Part shown: piece after piece, positions 1 through 10,089 of the stretch
How positions within the stretch are numbered: position 1 is the first letter of the stretch
Layout: each line of letters begins with the position of its first letter
IMG/VR virus record: IMGVR_UViG_3300030339_000025
Reading direction: 5' to 3' (one strand)
DNA: 12,443 nt
Origin: a virus
The notes under the pieces: generated by a model
Seen by the model: only the letters and a program-made list of their open reading frames with translations
Databases searched by the model: none
What the model was told of the DNA's origin: nothing
Made by a program: the position numbers and the translations under genes

Positions 1-121
1 TTAACTGGTCTTTATAAAGTTCTTCGTCAAAGAAAACAACTACATCTTTAGTGTCGTTGATGAATTTGACTTTCCGATTTCTAACCTTGGTTTTCAATAT
101 ACTCTTTAATTGTTTTTTCAC
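1..121 (-). CDS. Partial ORF running off the left edge of the window. An open frame reads ...VKKQLKSILKTKVRNRKVKFINDTKDVVVFFDEELYKDQL and continues past position 1. It overlaps the 3' end of tnpA in another frame and has no ATG, only a possible GTG at 119-121.
   Basis: Manual translation of the - strand at 1-124. The frame is closed by a TAA at 122-124 and open through position 1. The residues look protein-like (charged), but no start or homology is identifiable. Confidence 0.25.
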   Translation of the reverse strand, partial: MKKQLKSILKTKVRNRKVKFINDTKDVVVFFDEELYKDQL

Positions 122-500
122 TTACATTTCCGATTGACGACACAAAATAACCATCCGACCAAAATGTTCTTTCATTCCAAAACTGATTGCGTAAATAAAC
201 ACCATACAACTTCCATATTTCAATCGTAGACATTTGCTTTAACCTATTTACTATCTGTAGTGGTGATACGGATGGTTGGGTTGAAACTAATATATGTATG
301 TGATCCTCATCACCACATTCCATCAAATCAATATCGAAATCATACCTTTTTGATATGTTAGTCAAAATCAATTTCATATCATCACTGATTGGTGTTTTTA
401 ATAACCTTTTCCTATATTTCACCACAAATATCATATGATATTTCAATAAATACTTGGAATGATTTTTTGTCTTATAATCCTCAAAAACCATCATAACCAT
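81..500 (-). CDS. tnpA: IS200/IS605-family transposase TnpA (HuH, Y1 single-strand DNA transposase)
   Basis: 139 aa. N-terminal YHMIFVVKYRKRLL, HuH motif HIHILV, and C-terminal catalytic Tyr context SEKTIKEYIENQ are all typical of IS200-like Y1 transposases. It is divergently oriented to tnpB, as in IS605. Confidence 0.9.
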   Translation of the reverse strand: MVMMVFEDYKTKNHSKYLLKYHMIFVVKYRKRLLKTPISDDMKLILTNISKRYDFDIDLMECGDEDHIHILVSTQPSVSPLQIVNRLKQMSTIEIWKLYGVYLRNQFWNERTFWSDGYFVSSIGNVSEKTIKEYIENQG

Positions 501-584: not shown

Positions 585-1829
585 ATGAAAGTAATTAAAT
601 ATACATATAAATTCAGGCTTGATCCTAATCAAGAACAACAAACCTTACTAAACAAGCATTTTGGCTCTGTTAGATGGACTTATAATTACTTTCTAAACCA
701 ACGAAAAACGGAATACCTTAATAACAAAAAATCATTAAACTATTACGACCAAGCAGCAGAACTAACCCAAATCAAAAAAGTTAATGAATGGCTGAAAGAA
801 ATTAATAGTCAAACATTACAATACTCTCTGAAATGTCTTGATATGGCTTACCAAGGTTTCTTTAATAAAAGAACCAAATTTCCTAATTTTAAGTCAAAAC
901 GAAACAAAAATTCATTTACTATACCACAAAATGTTAGATATGATGGAACTAAATTAATTGTTCCAAAATTTCTTGATGGAATAGAAATGATAATGGAAAG
1001 ACAAATTAAAGGCATTATAAAACATTGTAATATATCAAAAACTCCTACTGGAAAATACTTTGTATCAATTCTAACTGAACTTGAATATCAACCTGTTAGA
1101 AAGACAAACCAATCAGTAGGAATAGATTTAGGTATAAAAGACTTTTTAGTGTTATCTAATGGAACGAAAATCAAGAACCATAGATTTCTAAAACACTACG
1201 AAAGAATTTTAGCTGAAAATCAAAAATATCTATCAAGAAAAACCAAACAATCAAATCGTTACGAAAAACAACGACTAAAACTTGCTAGAATTTATGAGAA
1301 AGTTACCAATTCTAGAATGGATTTAATTCATAAAACAACTAATAATCTAATTCATAATTTTGATATTATTTATTTAGAAGATTTAAATATTAAAGGAATG
1401 AGTAAAAGGTGTAAGCCAAAGCAAGATGAAAATGGAAAGTATTTACCTAATAATCAATCGGCAAAATCAGGATTAAATAAATCTATTTTAGATGTTGCTT
1501 GGGGAACTTTCATAGATACACTTGAATACAAAGCATTGTGGAATGACAAACAAGTTATTCATATTGATAGGTTCTTTCCATCTTCTAAAGCCTGTTCTAA
1601 ATGTGGCTGGATTAATAATAATTTAACCTTGAAAGATAGAAATTGGATTTGTCCTAAATGTGGTGAAAAGCATGATAGAGATATAAATGCCGCAATCAAT
1701 ATCCTTAATGAAGGATATCGTAAAAATATATCAGATGGAACGTCTGATTACGAGCGTGGAGCAAAAATAAGACCAATTTCGACTGGCACAAGCAACGAAA
1801 CGCTTAAAAAGAAGGAACTCGTTTCCTGA
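585..1829 (+). CDS. tnpB: IS605 OrfB / TnpB RNA-guided endonuclease-family protein. Structural relative of Cas12; in a eukaryotic virus context it would be Fanzor-like.
   Basis: 414 aa. The N-terminus YKFRLDPNQEQQTLLNKHFGSVRWTYN matches the OrfB_IS605 N-domain. RuvC-I is D in VGIDLGIKDF, RuvC-II is E in IIYLEDLNIKG. The zinc finger is CSKCGW...CPKCGEKHD, followed by RuvC-III RDINAAINI. All catalytic residues are present. Confidence 0.9.
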   Translation: MKVIKYTYKFRLDPNQEQQTLLNKHFGSVRWTYNYFLNQRKTEYLNNKKSLNYYDQAAELTQIKKVNEWLKEINSQTLQYSLKCLDMAYQGFFNKRTKFPNFKSKRNKNSFTIPQNVRYDGTKLIVPKFLDGIEMIMERQIKGIIKHCNISKTPTGKYFVSILTELEYQPVRKTNQSVGIDLGIKDFLVLSNGTKIKNHRFLKHYERILAENQKYLSRKTKQSNRYEKQRLKLARIYEKVTNSRMDLIHKTTNNLIHNFDIIYLEDLNIKGMSKRCKPKQDENGKYLPNNQSAKSGLNKSILDVAWGTFIDTLEYKALWNDKQVIHIDRFFPSSKACSKCGWINNNLTLKDRNWICPKCGEKHDRDINAAINILNEGYRKNISDGTSDYERGAKIRPISTGTSNETLKKKELVS

Positions 1830-1931: not shown

Positions 1932-3989
1932 ATGAAAATAACACAAGGAGTTTTAAAATATTGCAAAATTTATAATGTTACATTTGAAGATAAGTATTCC
2001 AATATAAAAACTATAAAATCAATTGAAAATTTCGATTCAAAATTTTCAAGTAATTCAGGTACGTCTCAAACTTCTACTGTTTTATCCAATAATAATAGTT
2101 ATTATAACGTAGTTGAAGAGAGCAATATAAATAATGGTCGAATATTATATAATTGTGATGTTGAAAATGGCAGATTTTTAAATTCTACATTCTTATCATT
2201 AAATAATGCTAATCATATTACTGATGGATATTTTAGTGGCTGCACTTTTTCTGGTTATACTATCAATGGCGGGCAATTTTTTGATTGTACAATACATTCT
2301 GGATGTACTTGGAATAATGGACAATGGAACGATGGAACTTTCAATGTTAGTTGGACTGGTGGAGTTTGGAATAAAGGAATTTTTCCATTTTTAATTTGGC
2401 CCGCTGGTATTTTTAATGGCGGTATTTTTAAATTTCCATCTGTATGGATTACAGGCGTTGCAAATGGCGGAATTTTTAGTGGAATAACTTGGAATCATGG
2501 TTTAGTTCGTAATGGAGATTTTCTTGATTGCACATTTATGAGTGGTTCTTTTAATAATGGAAATTTTAGTGATGGAACATTTATTGGTGGTATTTTTAAT
2601 AATGGAAAAATGGATAATTCAGTTATTAGCGGAGGTATTTTTAATGATGGTACAATTTCAAATTGTACAGTTAGTGGCAATACAGAAATTAATGGTGGTG
2701 ATTTTTCAGATACAATTATAAATGATGGTAAAATTGTTAATATGAATGGTACAAATTTAATTGTAAATTATGGCAAGTTCTATAATGGCACTTATGATAC
2801 TATACAATTTATAACTGGAGATATATATAATGGTTTATATTTGAATTCATCTGGTATTACATCAGGTTTAACAATACATAATGGTACATTTAAGAAGAGT
2901 GCATTTTGGCTAACTAATATACATAATGGAAATTTTACAAATTGTTATTCAGAAAATGTAAAATGGGATTATGGTATTTATACTGAAGGCTCAATGATGT
3001 TTAATCTTCCTGGGAGTTATTGGAATGATGGCTATTGGAATGATGGCATATTTACTGCGATTGATCCTATAGTTAGTATTCTTTCAAATGTGCAATCAAT
3101 TGATGCAATTACTACTACAACAACTGCTGCACCAACAACTACAACTACAACTACGATAGCACCACATTATATTGGTGAAAAAGTCAGTACAAATGGCGTG
3201 ATTTATGGCACTATTTTTTATCTATATTCTGGAGGTAAAAGCGGATTAATTTCTGCTAATGTAGATACCGCCACGATTACAGATCCAGATAGTTTTTGGG
3301 CTAGTGGCTCTGGTGGATATCAAAGCACAGGAGGACGCGGCACATCAATAGGAACTGGGCAAGCAAATAGTACTGCTATGCTAGCACAGCCTAAAACTAA
3401 TGGGCATGTAATAAAATATTGTCATGACTTATCATTAGGTGGATTCACTGATTGGTTTCTTGGTTCAAAATATGAGGTATTAGCACAATATTCAAATAGA
3501 TCACTTATTGGCGGTTTTTCTAATAACGGATATTGGTCAAGTACAGAATCTAATTATGATCATAGTATTGCTATTAACTTTGGAAATGGAGTTGCAGATA
3601 CGTGGTTAAAACATGATCATTTTTATGTTCGTGCAATTCGCTTTTTTGATGATACAATTGGAACATATACAAATGTTATAATTGATAATACTTCAAACGA
3701 TATAATAATAAACGATGTACAAATTGGCAATTCTTCTATTTTTGGTGTTATTTTTCCTATATCTACTGGTTCACATTACGTAGGAACTACTACATTAAAT
3801 TCTGAACTAACTACATTGATGATAAATTTTTCTAATATAACAGATAATAATCAAAGTATAAGTGTAAATATTAACTCTGTAAATTATTGTTATAATATGC
3901 CACATTCACCTATAATATCAATTCCTATAAATTTTATTAAAGGTCAAAATATTAATATAAGTGCTATTAATGCTAATTGTGTGTTTTAA
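1932..3989 (+). CDS. Large repeat-rich putative surface, fibre or adhesin protein. The N-terminal ~350 aa are roughly 7-residue Gly/aromatic repeats (NGGIF, NDGTF, SGxF) suggesting a beta-solenoid. Then comes an oligo-Thr linker (TTTTTAAPTTTTTTTIAP), then a DUF1566/Fib_succ_major (Lcl C-terminal)-like domain, then an Ile/Asn-rich C-terminal domain.
   Basis: 685 aa. The DUF1566-like signatures are GGFTDWFLGSKYEVLAQY (W.LP..EL..L-like) and GYWSSTE...AINFGNG......YVRAIRFF (yWSST....vRcVR-like). The Thr run is encoded by the ACN-rich tract at about 3107-3165. Confidence 0.75.
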   Translation: MKITQGVLKYCKIYNVTFEDKYSNIKTIKSIENFDSKFSSNSGTSQTSTVLSNNNSYYNVVEESNINNGRILYNCDVENGRFLNSTFLSLNNANHITDGYFSGCTFSGYTINGGQFFDCTIHSGCTWNNGQWNDGTFNVSWTGGVWNKGIFPFLIWPAGIFNGGIFKFPSVWITGVANGGIFSGITWNHGLVRNGDFLDCTFMSGSFNNGNFSDGTFIGGIFNNGKMDNSVISGGIFNDGTISNCTVSGNTEINGGDFSDTIINDGKIVNMNGTNLIVNYGKFYNGTYDTIQFITGDIYNGLYLNSSGITSGLTIHNGTFKKSAFWLTNIHNGNFTNCYSENVKWDYGIYTEGSMMFNLPGSYWNDGYWNDGIFTAIDPIVSILSNVQSIDAITTTTTAAPTTTTTTTIAPHYIGEKVSTNGVIYGTIFYLYSGGKSGLISANVDTATITDPDSFWASGSGGYQSTGGRGTSIGTGQANSTAMLAQPKTNGHVIKYCHDLSLGGFTDWFLGSKYEVLAQYSNRSLIGGFSNNGYWSSTESNYDHSIAINFGNGVADTWLKHDHFYVRAIRFFDDTIGTYTNVIIDNTSNDIIINDVQIGNSSIFGVIFPISTGSHYVGTTTLNSELTTLMINFSNITDNNQSISVNINSVNYCYNMPHSPIISIPINFIKGQNINISAINANCVF

Positions 3990-4474: not shown

Positions 4475-5284
4475 ATGAAAAATATAGTTACGTTTATTAA
4501 AAAGTATTATGTCTTTTTATTATTTATTTTAGTGATTGCTTTATCTGTATTTTTATTCAGAACATTATCAACACTTAAGCAAGAACGTGCAGATAGAAAA
4601 TTTGAGCAAAAAATTGAAGCTCAAAATTTAAGTGCATTAAAAGATAGTATTACAACAGAATATGATAAAAAATTAAAAGCATATGTTTCTACTAGTGACA
4701 ATTTTGTTGTTAATAAATTATCAGATTTGGAGAAATATAATAAATCTTTAACTGATGAATTAAAAAAGATGAAGGGTGATATTTTATCAGTTATTGAATC
4801 CAAAATTCAAGCTGATCTTGGTGGAATTACAACTAAAAATGATTCTATTGTAGTATTAGATGAAAAAACAAATCATTATGGATTAAAATTTAATAGTCCA
4901 TATTCAGATGCTGGATTTCAACAAAAATTGATAGGTATGAGTAAATTTTATGTTATTCCAAATGAGACAACAAAAAAATGGACTATAACACCTGATGCAA
5001 CTATTTTTAGTACAAATTTAACTTCAATTGCTATAACTTATGGATTTGAAGACTTAAAAGATAAATATAAAGTCTTTGCTTATACAAAATCTGATAAAAT
5101 TAAAATAACTGATATAACTGGCGGATATTTTATTGATAAGCAAATAGTTAAACCAATAAAGAATAAAAAATGGGGAATTGGTCCTCAAATTGGATATGGT
5201 ATGAGCACTAATTCTAACTTAACTAATCCATCATTTGGATGGAATATTGGCATCGGTGTTCATTATGATATATTAAAATGGTAA
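4475..5284 (+). CDS. Signal-peptide or signal-anchor protein with a coiled-coil region and a Gly/aromatic C-terminus ending in W. Possible envelope or outer-membrane-associated protein.
   Basis: 269 aa. Hydrophobic N-terminus FIKKYYVFLLFILVIALSVFLF. KQERADRKFEQKIEAQNLSALKD heptad-like segment. C-terminus WGIGPQIGYGMS...FGWNIGIGVHYDILKW with an alternating hydrophobic pattern and a terminal aromatic residue. Confidence 0.65.
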   Translation: MKNIVTFIKKYYVFLLFILVIALSVFLFRTLSTLKQERADRKFEQKIEAQNLSALKDSITTEYDKKLKAYVSTSDNFVVNKLSDLEKYNKSLTDELKKMKGDILSVIESKIQADLGGITTKNDSIVVLDEKTNHYGLKFNSPYSDAGFQQKLIGMSKFYVIPNETTKKWTITPDATIFSTNLTSIAITYGFEDLKDKYKVFAYTKSDKIKITDITGGYFIDKQIVKPIKNKKWGIGPQIGYGMSTNSNLTNPSFGWNIGIGVHYDILKW

Positions 5285-5299
5285 AATAAAATAAAAAAT

Positions 5300-5506
5300 A
5301 TGATTAAAATTAACATTAGTTATTGGCTAGGTAGTTCACAATTTAAAAATTTGAAGTATAAACATGATGATGAGATTAAATATACTTTAGATAAGCAAAC
5401 AGAAATTATTAATGAATTGATTAATAAAGGGCTTAATGTTATGATTAGACCGTTTCCACATCATTTGATGATTTATATTGATGATAAAGGATTTCAAAAA
5501 AGGTAA
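5300..5506 (+). CDS. Small hypothetical protein (68 aa)
   Basis: The ORF follows the upstream stop after a 15-nt AT-only spacer, with an A-rich start context aaaaaatATG. Confidence 0.45.
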   Translation: MIKINISYWLGSSQFKNLKYKHDDEIKYTLDKQTEIINELINKGLNVMIRPFPHHLMIYIDDKGFQKR

Positions 5507-5530
5507 AAAAATTAAAAAAATTAAAATATT

Positions 5531-5797
5531 ATGAGTGATAGTGGTAGATATTATGTTACTGATATTGAATCAGGTAGGAAATTTTGTGTAGAGCCAATAG
5601 GTGTTAGCCATCCTGAATGGGGTGATGTTGATCCTGTAACTAAAAAAATGACTGGTTCTTATGGCGAAAAACATAAAGGATGCATTGATGAAAGTGAATC
5701 TATTATTACTGAAGAAAATGGATTTAAAAACATTGTTACATTACCTGCAGGTGAATCACCTGATAGTTATATTAATAATTTGTTAAAAAGAAAATAA
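5531..5797 (+). CDS. Small hypothetical protein (88 aa), Gly/Glu-rich
   Basis: ORF preceded by a 24-nt AT-only spacer. No recognisable motif. Confidence 0.5.
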   Translation: MSDSGRYYVTDIESGRKFCVEPIGVSHPEWGDVDPVTKKMTGSYGEKHKGCIDESESIITEENGFKNIVTLPAGESPDSYINNLLKRK

Positions 5798-5802
5798 AAA
5801 TT

Positions 5803-6273
5803 ATGTCAGAAGAAGTTAATTGGAATATAATGGGTGATAATAGAGAAATAAGAGTATTTACAATACCTGTTGGTAATTTAGATCGTAAAGAATCTGAAAA
5901 ACTAATTCAAGAAATAATGAACAAATATAAAGAATATTCATATGGTGATTATTGGCCTTCAATTAAAGAAGAAAATATTGTAGACAATCATTTTGGAAAT
6001 GATGGAAAAGATTTGGATGCAGATTATCATTATATAACTAAAGAAGAAATTTGGAATGAATTAACTGATGGCGAAAAAAAAGAAAGACAATTATCTAAAG
6101 AAGAGCAAGATGAAATTTTCAAAAAAACTGGATTTGTTGATTGGAATCAATATGATTTAGATTATCTTGTTGAATATTTAGAAAATAAATGGAAATATAA
6201 TAGTTCTGGTGAGGCTCTTGCAATATTCAAATTGATTGATTTTTATAAAACACATATAGAAAAATATAAATGA
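5803..6273 (+). CDS. Strongly acidic hypothetical protein (156 aa, many Asp/Glu plus aromatic residues)
   Basis: The start is 5 nt after the upstream stop. The composition is rich in E, D, Y and W: EEQDEIF, DLDADYHY, DWNQYDLDYLVEYLE. Confidence 0.55.
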   Translation: MSEEVNWNIMGDNREIRVFTIPVGNLDRKESEKLIQEIMNKYKEYSYGDYWPSIKEENIVDNHFGNDGKDLDADYHYITKEEIWNELTDGEKKERQLSKEEQDEIFKKTGFVDWNQYDLDYLVEYLENKWKYNSSGEALAIFKLIDFYKTHIEKYK

Positions 6274-6368: not shown

Positions 6369-6659
6369 TTAGTGAATTAATTTTTCTAATTTTATCTTTC
6401 TTATAAATCTAATTCTTTTTTCTTTATCATATGCTATTTCTTGCAGCATTGATGATGTCATATCTGGTATTGTGCATTTTCTTTTATATTTACCACGATT
6501 TATTCTTTCAATAAATTCACAATTTATTAACATATTAATATAATTATCTATTGTTGACCCTCCTTTATCAATAATTTTCCTTTCAATTATTTCATTAGAA
6601 TTTATATAATTTCTAATTATTTCCCATTTGCTTATATTTTCAGGATAATTTATTTTCAT
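6369..6659 (-). CDS. 96-aa ORF in the same frame as the upstream homing-endonuclease fragment and separated from it by a single TAG codon. Either a C-extein remnant, a C-terminal extension of the homing endonuclease, or an independent small basic protein.
   Basis: 7139 and 6659 are in the same frame (480 nt apart). The sequence reads ...FITAN TAG ATA ATG AAA..., and the basic stretch GKYKRKCTIP follows. Confidence 0.4.
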   Translation of the reverse strand: MKINYPENISKWEIIRNYINSNEIIERKIIDKGGSTIDNYINMLINCEFIERINRGKYKRKCTIPDMTSSMLQEIAYDKEKRIRFIRKIKLEKLIH

Positions 6660-6662
6660 TAT

Positions 6663-7690
6663 CTAATTTGCAGTTATAAACATTTTTCCGTTTCTTCTAG
6701 CAATCCAAGTATTATATTTCTCCATTATTGGTGACCACATTACACCATCATAATATCCTTTTTGTATAATTGAATCTTTTGAATTTCTTAATAGTTTATG
6801 TGTTGATTCTGTTAATTGTGTATAATTAGCATAATTTTTAGAGAATATTCTATCTGCTGTATATCCAGCTAAAATACTTAATATTTGAGTTCTATCGTGA
6901 AAATCTTCATATTTTCCTCTTATAGCAAAAGATTTTGATGACCTTATACTACCATCACCATCTATAATTCCTTCTATTATTTTTTTTAATGTTTTTAAAT
7001 TTAAATTAAACATATTAAAATTAATTTTTTTATCTGGAATCAATTTTAAGAAAATATCTTTATATTTACTTCCAATTCTTATATCAATAACATCACAAAT
7101 TTGAATATCAGTATAATCATAAATATCAATTTTTTTCACAGATACTAGAGTGTCTTTATTTTTTTTTTATCACCATTATATCTATAGTATCGTTTTCTTT
7201 TACTATAAGTATATCCAATTTTTAAATTATTTAAACTATTTAAAATTTTATCAACAACATCATCATTCTTTGTATAATTTTGAGTAATTCCAATTCCATA
7301 TTTAACAATGTGACCATCTGTTATAATAATGCCTAACAAATATGCTAAATTTTCATCTATATTTTCAAAATTAGCAGTTCTTTTACAAGATGTTAAAATT
7401 TTATCATATTGTTTTAAATTTTCTGACTCACATATTTTTATTTTTCCATTATAATCTTCTATAACCATTTTATGACTTGGTGTTGAGATCATTGAAATTC
7501 TTCTACTATCAATAAATATAATAGGTCCATTATAATTATCTATTTTTATATTTTTTATTTTATCCCAAATTAAAAAATTTTCAATTATATCGTAAGATAA
7601 TACAAAATCGCCAATTATTAGTTCATTAAATTTTTTCCAACCATTTATAGTTAAACATTCAGTGTCTATATCTACGTAACTATTTTCCAC
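6663..7690 (-). pseudogene. Intein-like Hint domain with an embedded double-motif LAGLIDADG homing endonuclease. Split into two ORFs (7145-7690 and 6663-7139) in different frames. It ends with the intein-type terminal Asn immediately followed by TAG.
   Basis: Block A is CLTINGWKKFNELIIGDFVLSYD. Block B is ISTPSHKMVI (TxxH). LAGLIDADG motif 1 is LAYLLGIIITDGHI, in the first ORF. LAGLIDADG motif 2 is IIEGIIDGDGSI, in the second ORF. A block F/G-like C-terminus YYDG...NTWIARRNGKMFITAN is followed by a stop. The first ORF has no ATG (it begins with GTG), with an in-frame TGA at 7694-7696 only 11 codons upstream of the Cys. A T10 run lies at about 7158-7167, next to the frame break. Confidence 0.7.
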
Positions 7691-8510
7691 TATTCAATAA
7701 TTTTTCTTGTTTTCTTCTCTTTCGCTCTTGGTAAGTTATACCCTTGATAACATGTTTATCAATCTCTTTTTGATATTTCTCTAAATAATCATTTGAATTT
7801 TCCAATCTATTTTTAGCCATATCAAGATAATTGGCTGAAATATCAATACCGACATAATTGCAACCAAAAATTTTGCAACACACTGGAACAGTGCCTGACC
7901 CGCAATAAGGATCCAAAACAATTTTATCTTTATCATCATCAAATATAGAATATATAATTCTTGTTGGTATATCTAAAGAAAAAGGCGCTGGATGTGGATT
8001 ATTATTTTCTGGCATTATATCCCAAATAGCCATCATATTTGCATGTTTTGGAAGTAATTCCTTGCCTATTTTAGAATGATTTGGCTTATATAGCCAGTAT
8101 ATCCGTTCATCTGCTTGCCAGAACCTCCAACCTCTTAAATTACCTGTTATTTTTCTATTCCAAACAATTTCTTGTTTAATCATCCATTGTGTTTTATGAA
8201 GCCAAAGTATTGGATGAATCATATTTCCATTTACCCATCGACATTTATGATTATAAAAAAAAGATCCACCTGGTTTTATAGTTCTATATATTTCGTTTAG
8301 AACCTTTATTTGATTTTCTTGATAGATATCTTCTGGTATATTATCATCATAAGTATCATATTCAACTTTTTTAATTAGTGCGCCACTATTATTCTTCTTA
8401 TTATATACTGGACTCGTAATTCCAAGATCAAAATAATCAGAATCAATTTTTTGTAAAGTTTGTAGTGTATCACCTAATATTAATTCGTTTATTGGCCTCA
8501 TAAAATTCAT
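7680..8510 (-). CDS. DNA methyltransferase, beta-class N4-cytosine/N6-adenine type. The motif IV-like SPVY precedes motif I.
   Basis: 276 aa. DLGITSPVYN is a (D/S)PP(Y/F)-like motif IV near the N-terminus. VLDPYCGSGTVPVCCKIFGCNYVGIDIS is the FxGxG AdoMet motif I near the C-terminus. This order defines the beta permutation (PF01555-like). Confidence 0.85.
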   Translation of the reverse strand: MNFMRPINELILGDTLQTLQKIDSDYFDLGITSPVYNKKNNSGALIKKVEYDTYDDNIPEDIYQENQIKVLNEIYRTIKPGGSFFYNHKCRWVNGNMIHPILWLHKTQWMIKQEIVWNRKITGNLRGWRFWQADERIYWLYKPNHSKIGKELLPKHANMMAIWDIMPENNNPHPAPFSLDIPTRIIYSIFDDDKDKIVLDPYCGSGTVPVCCKIFGCNYVGIDISANYLDMAKNRLENSNDYLEKYQKEIDKHVIKGITYQERKRRKQEKLLNSGK

Positions 8511-8922: not shown

Positions 8923-10089
8923 TTATGGACAGCCAAAATATATAGTTGAATTTATTGTAATTATAGAAAATATATCTGGATCAGGTAAAATAAGTGATGT
9001 TCCAATAACAGTATAAAAATTATCAGAATCGTCTACTACTCTAGATGTAGTTATATATGATTGAGAACCACTAAAAGGACCAGCGCAATATGTATTATGT
9101 GTAATACAATTTTGTAATATATACCAATATAATTGTAATGTTGTAGTTGTAGTTGTAGGCACGACAGTTGTAGTTGTAGTAGGAACAATAGTTGTTGTGG
9201 TTGTTGGTGCCGCAGTTGTTGTAGTTATTGGTGTCGCAGTGGTTGTAGTTGTTGGTGCCGCAGTGGTTGTAGTTGTTGTAGGCGGTATAGTTGTAGTTGT
9301 AGTTGTAGTTGGAATAACTGTTGTAGTTGTAGTTGTAGTTGTTGTTCCAGTAATTAAATAAAAATCGTAAATTGTATTTTTTGTAATATCAATAGTAATA
9401 CCTGTAGGTGTATATCCATTTGCACTACAATTTACTATAAATGATCCAGGTGGAACAGCAAGTGAGTAATATCCATTTTCATTAGTATTACTATATACAC
9501 CAAGCGAATTTATAGTAATAGTTGCATTTGATATTGTTGCCCCAGTTATCGTATAAACTTCACCTTCAATAATTTCAAAAGTTCCTATATTACATTGATA
9601 ATATACTACACCATCTGAAATATCATTGAAATAATTTCCACTTCTACAGGACATTTTACTTAAATATTGATTTTTTAATAACATTCCTGGTGTAATATCA
9701 TTAAAATATCTATTTATAACTATTTCATTTCTATAATTATTTGTATATAAAATCTTATATCCAGTATAAAAATTTGAAAAAGCTATCGCAGGATTACTTA
9801 AATCAAATGTTCCAGAATTTATTATTGGTTCAGTATAAGTAATATAAACTATATCACCGATGGTGAAATTATTTTCAATTTCAGTATATAATTTTATGTA
9901 ACCTTTATAATTAGAGTATGTTTCTAAAATTTTAACAGCATTTCTAATATTTATATAACTATTGGTTTTTAAATTTATTTGACTTTGGATCAACGGCATG
10001 TTGCCACTTAATGAACTTGATACATTTGATGATTTTGCATTTGTTGCAATAGCTATAGGCTTTTTATTTTGAATAATTAAACGTGGCAT
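8923..10089 (-). CDS. Putative surface or fibre protein. The N-terminal region has a carboxypeptidase-regulatory-like (Cna-B-like) beta-sandwich segment. Then comes a long oligo-Thr linker, (T5-9 [AAP/IPP/IVP/VVP]) repeated 8 times. Then a small Cys-containing C-terminal domain.
   Basis: 388 aa. NGYYSLAVPPGSFIVNCSANGYTPTGITIDITKNTIYDFYL resembles CarboxypepD_reg. The linker is TTTTTTTTTVIPTTTTTTTIPPTTTTTTAAPTTTTTATPITTTTAAPTTTTTIVPTTTTTVVPTTTTTT. The C-terminus contains C..H..YC. Confidence 0.75.
   Translation of the reverse strand: MPRLIIQNKKPIAIATNAKSSNVSSSLSGNMPLIQSQINLKTNSYINIRNAVKILETYSNYKGYIKLYTEIENNFTIGDIVYITYTEPIINSGTFDLSNPAIAFSNFYTGYKILYTNNYRNEIVINRYFNDITPGMLLKNQYLSKMSCRSGNYFNDISDGVVYYQCNIGTFEIIEGEVYTITGATISNATITINSLGVYSNTNENGYYSLAVPPGSFIVNCSANGYTPTGITIDITKNTIYDFYLITGTTTTTTTTTVIPTTTTTTTIPPTTTTTTAAPTTTTTATPITTTTAAPTTTTTIVPTTTTTVVPTTTTTTLQLYWYILQNCITHNTYCAGPFSGSQSYITTSRVVDDSDNFYTVIGTSLILPDPDIFSIITINSTIYFGCP
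9127..9352. repeat. Tandem hexanucleotide-type coding repeat, (GTTGTA/GTTGTG)n on the + strand, encoding the oligo-Thr linker. It is similar in inverse orientation to the ACN tract at about 3107-3165.
   Basis: Visible tgtagttgtagttgtagg... periodicity in the sequence. Confidence 0.7.

Follow-up and report, generated by a model that had tools for sequence, protein, structure and literature searches.

A free-standing, intein-derived LAGLIDADG endonuclease gene overlapping an orphan DNA methyltransferase gene in an uncultured phage

In the virus record IMGVR_UViG_3300030339_000025 of IMG/VR, a stretch of 12,443 nucleotides (nt) that is called the window throughout, a beta-class DNA methyltransferase gene overlaps an open reading frame (ORF) that resembles a LAGLIDADG homing endonuclease. 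Why do these two genes stand together? The original prediction for this DNA, made from the letters alone, offered two answers: the pair could form a unit in which the methyltransferase protects self DNA from the co-encoded nuclease, or the methyltransferase could be an orphan beside which an endonuclease is simply homing. Our analysis argues for the second. The nuclease is very probably a former intein that now exists as a free-standing gene and is not the partner of a restriction-modification (R-M) system, and the locus as a whole is probably a selfish, intein-derived LAGLIDADG homing-endonuclease gene next to an independent orphan phage methyltransferase. The original prediction had not seen that the nuclease is a whole ex-intein, with a Hint splicing fold as well as a LAGLIDADG nuclease, nor that its ancestors lived inside methyltransferase genes, an ancestry that would give the adjacency a historical, target-site reason. 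The features at the centre of the question are the following.

7680-8510, minus strand: orphan beta-class DNA methyltransferase of 276 amino acids (aa), intact, TAG stop, PF01555.
7145-7690, minus strand: N-terminal half of the nuclease, 181 aa, with a GTG start, Tyr in place of the intein Cys1 (7676-7678), block B TPSH (7472-7483) and LAGLIDADG motif 1 (7310-7348).
6663-7139, minus strand: C-terminal half of the nuclease, 158 aa, with LAGLIDADG motif 2 (6948-6980), block F WSP (6729-6743, its Cys lost) and block G MFITAN followed by TAG (6663-6683).
7159-7168: homopolymer, A10 on the coding strand, that splits the nuclease ORF; A8 in sister contigs restores the frame.

The two nuclease ORFs of the window are halves of one frameshifted gene. 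Translation of the first would start at GTG 7690, inside the last methyltransferase codons on the same strand and in the +1 frame relative to them, with an overlap of exactly 11 nt (GTGGAAAATAG) as had been described; a TGA two codons upstream in the same frame means that no longer nuclease ORF is possible. The C-terminal half-ORF is 100% identical to residues 175-341 of an intact protein, P0001, found in sister contigs. Identical copies of the methyltransferase are on record on at least 11 metagenome contigs, and the six examined (L001-L006) are near-identical to the window, whose sequence is itself identical to part of the Joint Genome Institute (JGI) metagenome contig L001. The tract reads A10 in the window, L001, L003, L004 and L005, and A8, with the uninterrupted 341-aa ORF of P0001, in L002 and L006. 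Over 7.2 kb, L002 differs from the window by one mismatch and the A-tract indel, and at the nuclease locus the strains differ by tract length alone, with no substitutions. Among otherwise near-identical genomes, the A8/A10 homopolymer turns the nuclease ORF on or off. In the protein, the tract corresponds to a Lys-rich linker that joins the two LAGLIDADG half-domains, and the A10 split falls exactly in this linker, a region of low confidence in the AlphaFold2 (AF2) model. The A10 allele gives the C-terminal half-ORF a GTG of its own, 5 nt past the stop of the N-terminal half (7139-7150), and may yield a two-piece enzyme by re-initiation or be restored by transcriptional slippage; runs of A of such length do slip in transcription, and some full-length protein may still be made.

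What kind of protein does the repaired ORF encode? It matches the Pfam family LAGLIDADG_3 (E=4e-5; 24.2 bits, cut-off 22.5), together with a weak match to Intein_splicing, and its LAGLIDADG motifs are LAYLLGIIITDG and IIEGIIDGDG, the acidic residue of each (TDG, GDG) being conserved in all six aligned relatives. A sequence search of the PDB returned no match to the nuclease; matches there came from the fold search only. The AF2 model of P0001 (predicted local distance difference test, pLDDT, 87; predicted template modelling score, pTM, 0.84) has as its best PDB fold matches the homing-endonuclease inteins TliVMA, PI-PfuI, PhoVMA and PI-SceI (E=1e-15 to 1e-10), and structures that are Hint only (Hedgehog/Hint and BIL domains) or LAGLIDADG only (I-DmoI) match the respective halves of the model. 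The nuclease is predicted to have the pseudo-dimeric alpha-beta-beta-alpha-beta-beta-alpha fold of two-motif monomeric LAGLIDADG enzymes, and blocks A, B, F and G align with those of true inteins, as a Hint fold demands. The 341-aa protein is a complete intein-type module, a Hint splicing fold joined to a two-motif LAGLIDADG nuclease.

The splicing residues of this module have been lost. Position 1 is Tyr where relatives have Cys, the block-F WCP has become WSP, the terminal ITGN has become ITAN followed by TAG, and the four residues (V-E-N-S) that precede position 1 do not amount to an N-extein. The protein thus has neither an in-frame insertion into a host with exteins, nor a nucleophile at position 1 or the block-F Cys of a class 3 intein, nor an Asn followed by Cys, Ser or Thr. 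With Cys1, the block-F Cys, the N-extein and the +1 nucleophile gone, the nuclease cannot splice, and there is nothing to splice it out of. The window copy retains the acidic residue of each LAGLIDADG motif, together with block B (TxxH) and the terminal Asn, and its nuclease centre looks intact.

Relatives of the nuclease point to methyltransferase genes as its former home. The closest over the full length are P0002 (48% identity), P0003 (49%) and P0127 (51%; 641 aa), followed at ~32-33% by P0004, P0005 and L019. All six lie within PF01555-type methyltransferases at one common site, HPA↓xFP (the arrow marks the insertion point), with the junction pattern HPA↓CVDxxTECLTxxGWKK ... FITGN↓(S/T/C)FPE, and splicing restores the canonical HPAxFP. 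Insertion is exactly after HPA in P0002, P0003, P0004, P0127 and L019; the C-terminal junction of P0003 falls outside the recorded ORF, and in P0005 the Asn is followed by Pro and non-methyltransferase sequence. The methyltransferases that host the inteins belong to a different PF01555 subfamily; identity between the window methyltransferase and the spliced P0004 exteins is only 21% (E=3e-10).

The wider family consists of inteins. A full HMMER scan of 1.8 billion representatives returned 2434 nuclease relatives; among the best 150, nearly every one forms part of a longer protein. In about 70 further loci from metagenome and viral collections, inteins of this family have as hosts methyltransferases (at several sites), family-A DNA polymerases, anaerobic ribonucleotide reductases, integrases, phosphoesterases and a papain-like peptidase. 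Cys1 and exteins are present in 70 of the 70 further loci with a readable position 1, and those read to the C-terminus have a terminal Asn (Gln in two) and then Ser, Thr or Cys. Among GenBank phages the nuclease has one remote match only, to a DNA polymerase intein. Nothing came back when viral contigs were scanned with either protein singly (methyltransferase or nuclease), nor did a degenerate DNA pattern encoding SYVDI(D/E)TECLT give a match. Decaying hosts also occur in the family: the methyltransferase-type context of P0231 is reduced to 27 + 17 extein residues, P0005 has its Pro at +1 and foreign tail, and P0261 ends GS↓E. These three are possible intermediates toward a free-standing state.

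A second free-standing copy exists. It begins MIKNDSYVDIETECLT (L017/P0131) and stands in L017 (MIKNDSYVDIETECLTIIGWKK...) at the same position as the window nuclease, its ATG start overlapping the methyltransferase stop. It too has Tyr at position 1, from which it follows that the non-splicing form is not a one-off accident, and its identity to the window copy is 73% over the 64 residues compared. With P0131, 91 residues of the second copy are known, and a search with this fragment returned only itself. Over 62 codons, the ratio of nonsynonymous to synonymous divergence (dN/dS) between the window and L017 nucleases is ~0.34, and the non-splicing form appears to be under some purifying selection. 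Synonymous divergence (pS) is 0.34+/-0.08 in the nuclease versus 0.61+/-0.04 in the adjacent methyltransferase, where it is uniform along the gene. Since the nuclease value is about half that of its neighbour, transfer of the nuclease between phage lineages seems to postdate the divergence of their methyltransferases.

How did the nuclease come to lie here? The context of the methyltransferase was read in nine lineages, and outside the window it is as follows (identities are to the window methyltransferase unless stated).

L011/L012: methyltransferase 83%, then an ORF96 homolog of ~100 aa with the same 11-nt overlap with the methyltransferase stop (ATGATAAATAA).
L016: methyltransferase 76%, then an ORF96 homolog, directly.
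L058: methyltransferase 94% identical to the L016 enzyme, then an ORF96 homolog, directly.
L055: methyltransferase 79%, then an ORF96 homolog, directly.
L056/L057: methyltransferase 78%, then a split ORF96 homolog, 39 + 61 aa (L056 3812-4116).
L007: methyltransferase 83%, then an unrelated small ORF.
L009/L010: methyltransferase 85%, then an unrelated small ORF.
L017: methyltransferase 79%, then the second nuclease copy.

The gene to which these homologs refer lies in the window immediately beyond the nuclease.

6369-6659, minus strand: ORF96, a small winged-helix-like phage gene of 96 aa, the original downstream neighbour of the methyltransferase, now displaced.

The nuclease is absent beside the methyltransferase in the seven lineages L007, L009/L010, L011, L016, L055, L056/L057 and L058. 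Comparison of these contexts identifies it as an insertion of ~1.03 kb between two conserved phage genes, sporadic in that only the window phage and L017 carry it. The ORF96 homologs are ~43% identical to window ORF96, whose own N-terminus is new (MKINYPENIS-KWE), and the first codons of the nuclease, GTG GAA AAT AGT, resemble the native start of an ORF96 homolog (L016: ATG GAA CTA AGT AAA TGG). As judged from these starts, the cassette was inserted a few codons inside ORF96, whose overlapping start it now uses. A start overlap inherited from the displaced gene accounts for the 11-nt coupling, and no functional link to the methyltransferase needs to be assumed.

Several observations bear on the junctions and on ORF96 itself. 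A short duplication of ENS/ENIS codons is found at the insert junctions; two direct repeats flanking the insert, one of 15 nt (14/15 matches) and one of 41 nt (73% identity), were set aside as both fall, by estimate, within chance for AT-rich DNA. We also considered whether ORF96 is a decayed methyltransferase C-extein ('NYPENIS..IIDKGGST' against 'SFPESL..DPMVGSGTT'). Smith-Waterman alignment was no better than with shuffled sequences (z<1.3), and the clear homologs directly after the methyltransferase in nuclease-free phages also rule this out. ORF96 has weak winged-helix hits (WH_DRP) and weak AbiEi hits. Several related phages keep the gene immediately behind the methyltransferase, its start overlapping the methyltransferase stop, and it may be a regulator paired with the methyltransferase. 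In L055 the ORF96 homolog is oddly extended at its N-terminus by 15 residues (MINNLINKKTNWTKK-MNKWEIIK; 1036-1104), perhaps a scar left when the nuclease was lost. Between the strain of L003/L004 and that of the window and L001, all 29 differences sit at 5489-6109 (620 bp, 4.7% divergence), and the remaining ~6.3 kb are identical; this recombination patch starts ~260 bp beyond ORF96, close to the endonuclease locus.

The coordinates of the methyltransferase, its TAG stop and its match to PF01555 N6_N4_Mtase (91.6 bits, cut-off 26.7; E=9e-26) bear out the earlier description of an intact enzyme. Motif IV, SPVY (residues 33-36, 8403-8414), lies N-terminal of motif I, DPYCGSGT (residues 200-207, 7890-7913), and by this order, with its place in PF01555, the protein is assigned to the beta class, as had been proposed. 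It has >2000 homologs, up to 85% identical and nearly all of ~270 aa. The best solved relative is the N4-cytosine methyltransferase 8s9m/8s9n (E=7e-38), and the names of homologs in databases are 'adenine-specific' or 'modification methylase'. The motif IV variant SPVY, and the variant HPAPFS that is described below, had suggested an inactivated enzyme; SPVY occurs in 6/120 homologs and SPVY/SPIY in 11/120, with no sign of decay, and inactivation was rejected.

Which explanation do these findings favour? The idea that methyltransferase and nuclease form an R-M-like or addiction module, with the nuclease attacking unmethylated competitor or host DNA, draws on the tight, same-strand coupling of the genes through the 11-nt overlap, on the same pairing in the second lineage, L017, and on the lack of another nuclease partner: no restriction-endonuclease-like protein was detected among the window ORFs by Pfam or PADLOC, in agreement with the earlier remark that no classical restriction endonuclease is nearby. 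We consider it very unlikely all the same. The overlap is inherited from the displaced downstream gene, since the ORF96 homolog of L011 has the same one; the methyltransferase family is widespread without the nuclease, including the seven close lineages; and the relatives of the nuclease are inteins housed by many unrelated proteins. Most contigs have a frameshifted nuclease next to an unchanged methyltransferase, and LAGLIDADG enzymes read sites of ~20 bp, whereas methyltransferase sites are short. The original prediction had taken the methyltransferase without the nuclease, and the nuclease elsewhere, as the mark of independent elements, and this is what is found: nuclease relatives reside in methyltransferases, DNA polymerases, ribonucleotide reductases and integrases, and the two genes are not co-inherited, so that neither the protection unit nor its joint movement is supported, though methylation might still influence cleavage. 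An even more remote reading, to which we give almost no credence, is that methyltransferase, nuclease and ORF96 are one gene, joined by frameshifting or stop recoding, from which a still-functional intein is spliced. A single frame is indeed shared by methyltransferase, C-terminal nuclease half and ORF96 when the tract is A10, with nuclease and ORF96 separated only by TAG ATA. This sharing is a coincidence that vanishes in the intact A8 allele, which disposes of one long gene across frames, and TAG ends other ordinary genes in the window, which disposes of its recoding. Furthermore, with Tyr at position 1 and Ser in block F the protein has neither a class 1 nor a class 3 nucleophile, a stop follows the Asn, ORF96 has no similarity to methyltransferase C-exteins, and methyltransferase and ORF96 are separate overlapping genes in nuclease-free relatives.

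The more serious competitor holds that the nuclease is a dead relic, a decaying and inactive ex-intein pseudogene that persists only because deletion has not happened yet. The A10 frameshift in the window, L001, L003, L004 and L005, the loss of all splicing nucleophiles and the visibly decaying host genes of family members P0231, P0005 and P0261 speak for it, and for the A10 allele it is plausible. For the locus we hold it to be unlikely, if by no means far-fetched. The A8 allele maintains an uninterrupted ORF of 341 codons in DNA of ~21% guanine-plus-cytosine (GC); neither block B nor either catalytic Asp has been lost; the predicted fold is of high confidence; dN/dS against the 73%-identical second copy is ~0.34; strains differ in tract length and in no substitution; and slippage at A10 may still supply some full-length protein. 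The insertion between conserved genes and the intein ancestry support the fallback of the original prediction, an endonuclease that homes beside an orphan methyltransferase.

How would such a selfish endonuclease gene spread? During co-infection, the enzyme would cut the DNA of nuclease-free relatives, and recombinational repair would copy the gene in, a process known as 'intronless homing'. Its most likely target would be the HPA↓PFP-coding DNA in the neighbouring methyltransferase gene, ~300 bp upstream, which is the ancestral intein homing site. The methyltransferase would then serve as target and landmark and not as a protective partner, and a target motif inherited from intein ancestors would account for the position of an ex-methyltransferase intein next to a methyltransferase from a different subfamily. 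In the window the site reads as follows.

7977-7994, minus strand: HPAPFS codons CAT CCA GCG CCT TTT TCT, the uninterrupted counterpart of the HPA↓xFP intein site and the proposed target or immunity site.

This allele is rare. HPAPFP or HPCAFP is found in 116/120 homologs and HPAPFS in 4/120, and these four are polyphyletic; for each there are relatives, 85-94% identical to it, that read HPAPFP. The four include the window and L017, the two nuclease carriers (Fisher p ~8e-4, computed by hand and assuming that the other homologs lack the nuclease). The DNA of the carriers reads CCA GCG CCT TTT TC(T/A), as compared with GC(A/T) CCN TT(T/C) (C/T)CN in six nuclease-free genes. GCG accounts for 9/110 Ala codons in the window (8%), and the sole GCG of each carrier methyltransferase encodes the Ala at the insertion point. 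A synonymous rare codon at -1 and a change at +7 of the ancestral homing site are what target-site immunity is expected to look like, and they suggest that two substitutions, GCA to GCG and CCA to TCN, could render carriers immune. Together these patterns make a circumstantial case that suggests homing by cutting HPA↓PFP.

Several findings weigh against this target or against a homing gene that is still active. HPAPFS alleles occur without the nuclease in L055 (GCG with TCA, as in carriers) and in L016 (TCA with GCA). Recent homing from a cut ~300 bp away should leave co-conversion, and the 3' third of the methyltransferase (3' 100 codons) bears no such signal between the two carriers, its pS being 0.61 as in the 5' part; co-conversion of the methyltransferase 3' end with the nuclease was rejected because identity and pS are equal on the 5' and 3' sides of the HPA site. 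The association comes from two carrier lineages, one of them known from 68-91 codons only. Five of the seven near-identical contigs are frameshifted (the window, which is the L001 sequence, with L003, L004 and L005), and the gene may be in the course of being lost. With an identity to the methyltransferase inteins of only ~50%, the nuclease may have drifted in specificity. The target is a guess, and we rate the HPA↓PFP-coding DNA of the neighbouring methyltransferase as a possible specific target with somewhat less than an even chance of being the right one.

Homing endonucleases are thought to shuttle among free-standing, intron-borne and intein-borne lifestyles. To our knowledge, documented transitions between these lifestyles are few, and the best known exit from the intein state is the yeast HO/WHO lineage. 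The closest analog of the phage nuclease is, by the likeness of its parts, found among these yeast elements: WHO genes are intein-derived, do not splice and lie on the 3' side of FBA1, the gene that they target; sensitive FBA1 alleles are cut and receive a resistant 3' end (PMC7282813, PMC7282806; Coughlan et al. 2020, eLife 9:e55336). In both cases an intein-derived Hint and LAGLIDADG protein that does not splice is encoded by a free-standing gene. The WHO gene stands directly 3' of the gene it cuts, FBA1, of which carrier alleles are cleavage-resistant, and the phage gene stands directly 3' of a gene with the ancestral homing motif, where a rare allele is found. Unlike WHO and HO, the phage element has no zinc-finger domain, the protein ending at intein block G; no relic 3' fragments of the neighbouring gene lie downstream, ORF96 being unrelated to the methyltransferase C-terminus; the host is a bacteriophage and not a yeast nucleus, and the target is putative; and the ancestral phage inteins come from a different subfamily of the same enzyme superfamily (the P0004 exteins). 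A full phage counterpart of WHO, in which a free-standing ex-intein cuts the HPA↓PFP site of rivals, carriers are immune through GCG...TCN and the A8/A10 tract toggles expression, is a tentative proposal that we regard as rather doubtful.

Two further kinds of element invite comparison. The free-standing seg and mob endonucleases of T4 cleave a neighbouring gene, some way from where they are inserted, and spread by 'intronless homing' (PMC2988022). Like them, the phage nuclease is inserted between genes that are conserved in related phages, is sporadic and is expressed from the signals of its neighbours, and by analogy it would be expected to cleave the adjacent gene of phages that lack the endonuclease, and then to be copied in through repair. 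The T4 enzymes are GIY-YIG or HNH proteins, whereas the nuclease described here is a LAGLIDADG protein with a complete, now useless, splicing domain. Inteins in PF01555 DNA methylases have been reported in actinobacteriophages (bioRxiv 10.1101/2025.01.02.630785). With canonical inteins of such methylases (P0002, P0003, P0004, P0127 and L019) the nuclease shares homology over its full length (32-51%), blocks A/B/F/G, the nuclease motifs and the predicted fold; unlike them, it is not embedded and is without Cys1, the block-F Cys and the +1 nucleophile. In the literature searched we found no description of a free-standing, non-splicing derivative of a whole intein in a phage, which is not proof of absence.

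The locus offers a concrete, testable case, as an intact allele, a frameshifted allele, nuclease-free sisters and true intein relatives are all at hand as sequence. If the predicted target is true, an intein that no longer splices can persist by relocating next to a gene with its homing motif, the adjacency to the methyltransferase is explained, and a new LAGLIDADG scaffold with a defined site is gained. If the WHO-like reading is true, the locus is a natural snapshot, in a virus, of the transition from intein to free-standing gene. If the target prediction is wrong, it is one more selfish nuclease gene in a phage.

The DNA that carries the locus has a GC content of 25% over the window, and relatives of the window encode gp32, RNA ligase, polynucleotide kinase and T4-portal-like genes. 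From this gene content, the source is an uncultured phage; GenBank phages include no close relative of it. Other mobile elements share the same DNA. At the contig edge lies a pair of the IS200/IS605 insertion-sequence type, a second kind of mobile element within the same 12 kb, which consists of a Y1 transposase TnpA (PF01797, E=6e-35; 81-500, minus strand) and a TnpB/OrfB protein (OrfB_IS605 and a Cas12f-like TNB domain; 585-1829, plus strand). Outside the window, L001 carries (2032-2565 and 5142-5633) an opposite-strand ORF with a NUMOD3 domain, probably a further free-standing homing endonuclease, and a second, Dam-like methyltransferase (PF05869). Two large proteins with long poly-threonine linkers are encoded at 1932-3989 (plus strand) and 8923-10089 (minus strand); their weak domain matches, pentapeptide-like, Lcl C-terminal and CarboxypepD_reg-like, suggest fibre or receptor-binding proteins.

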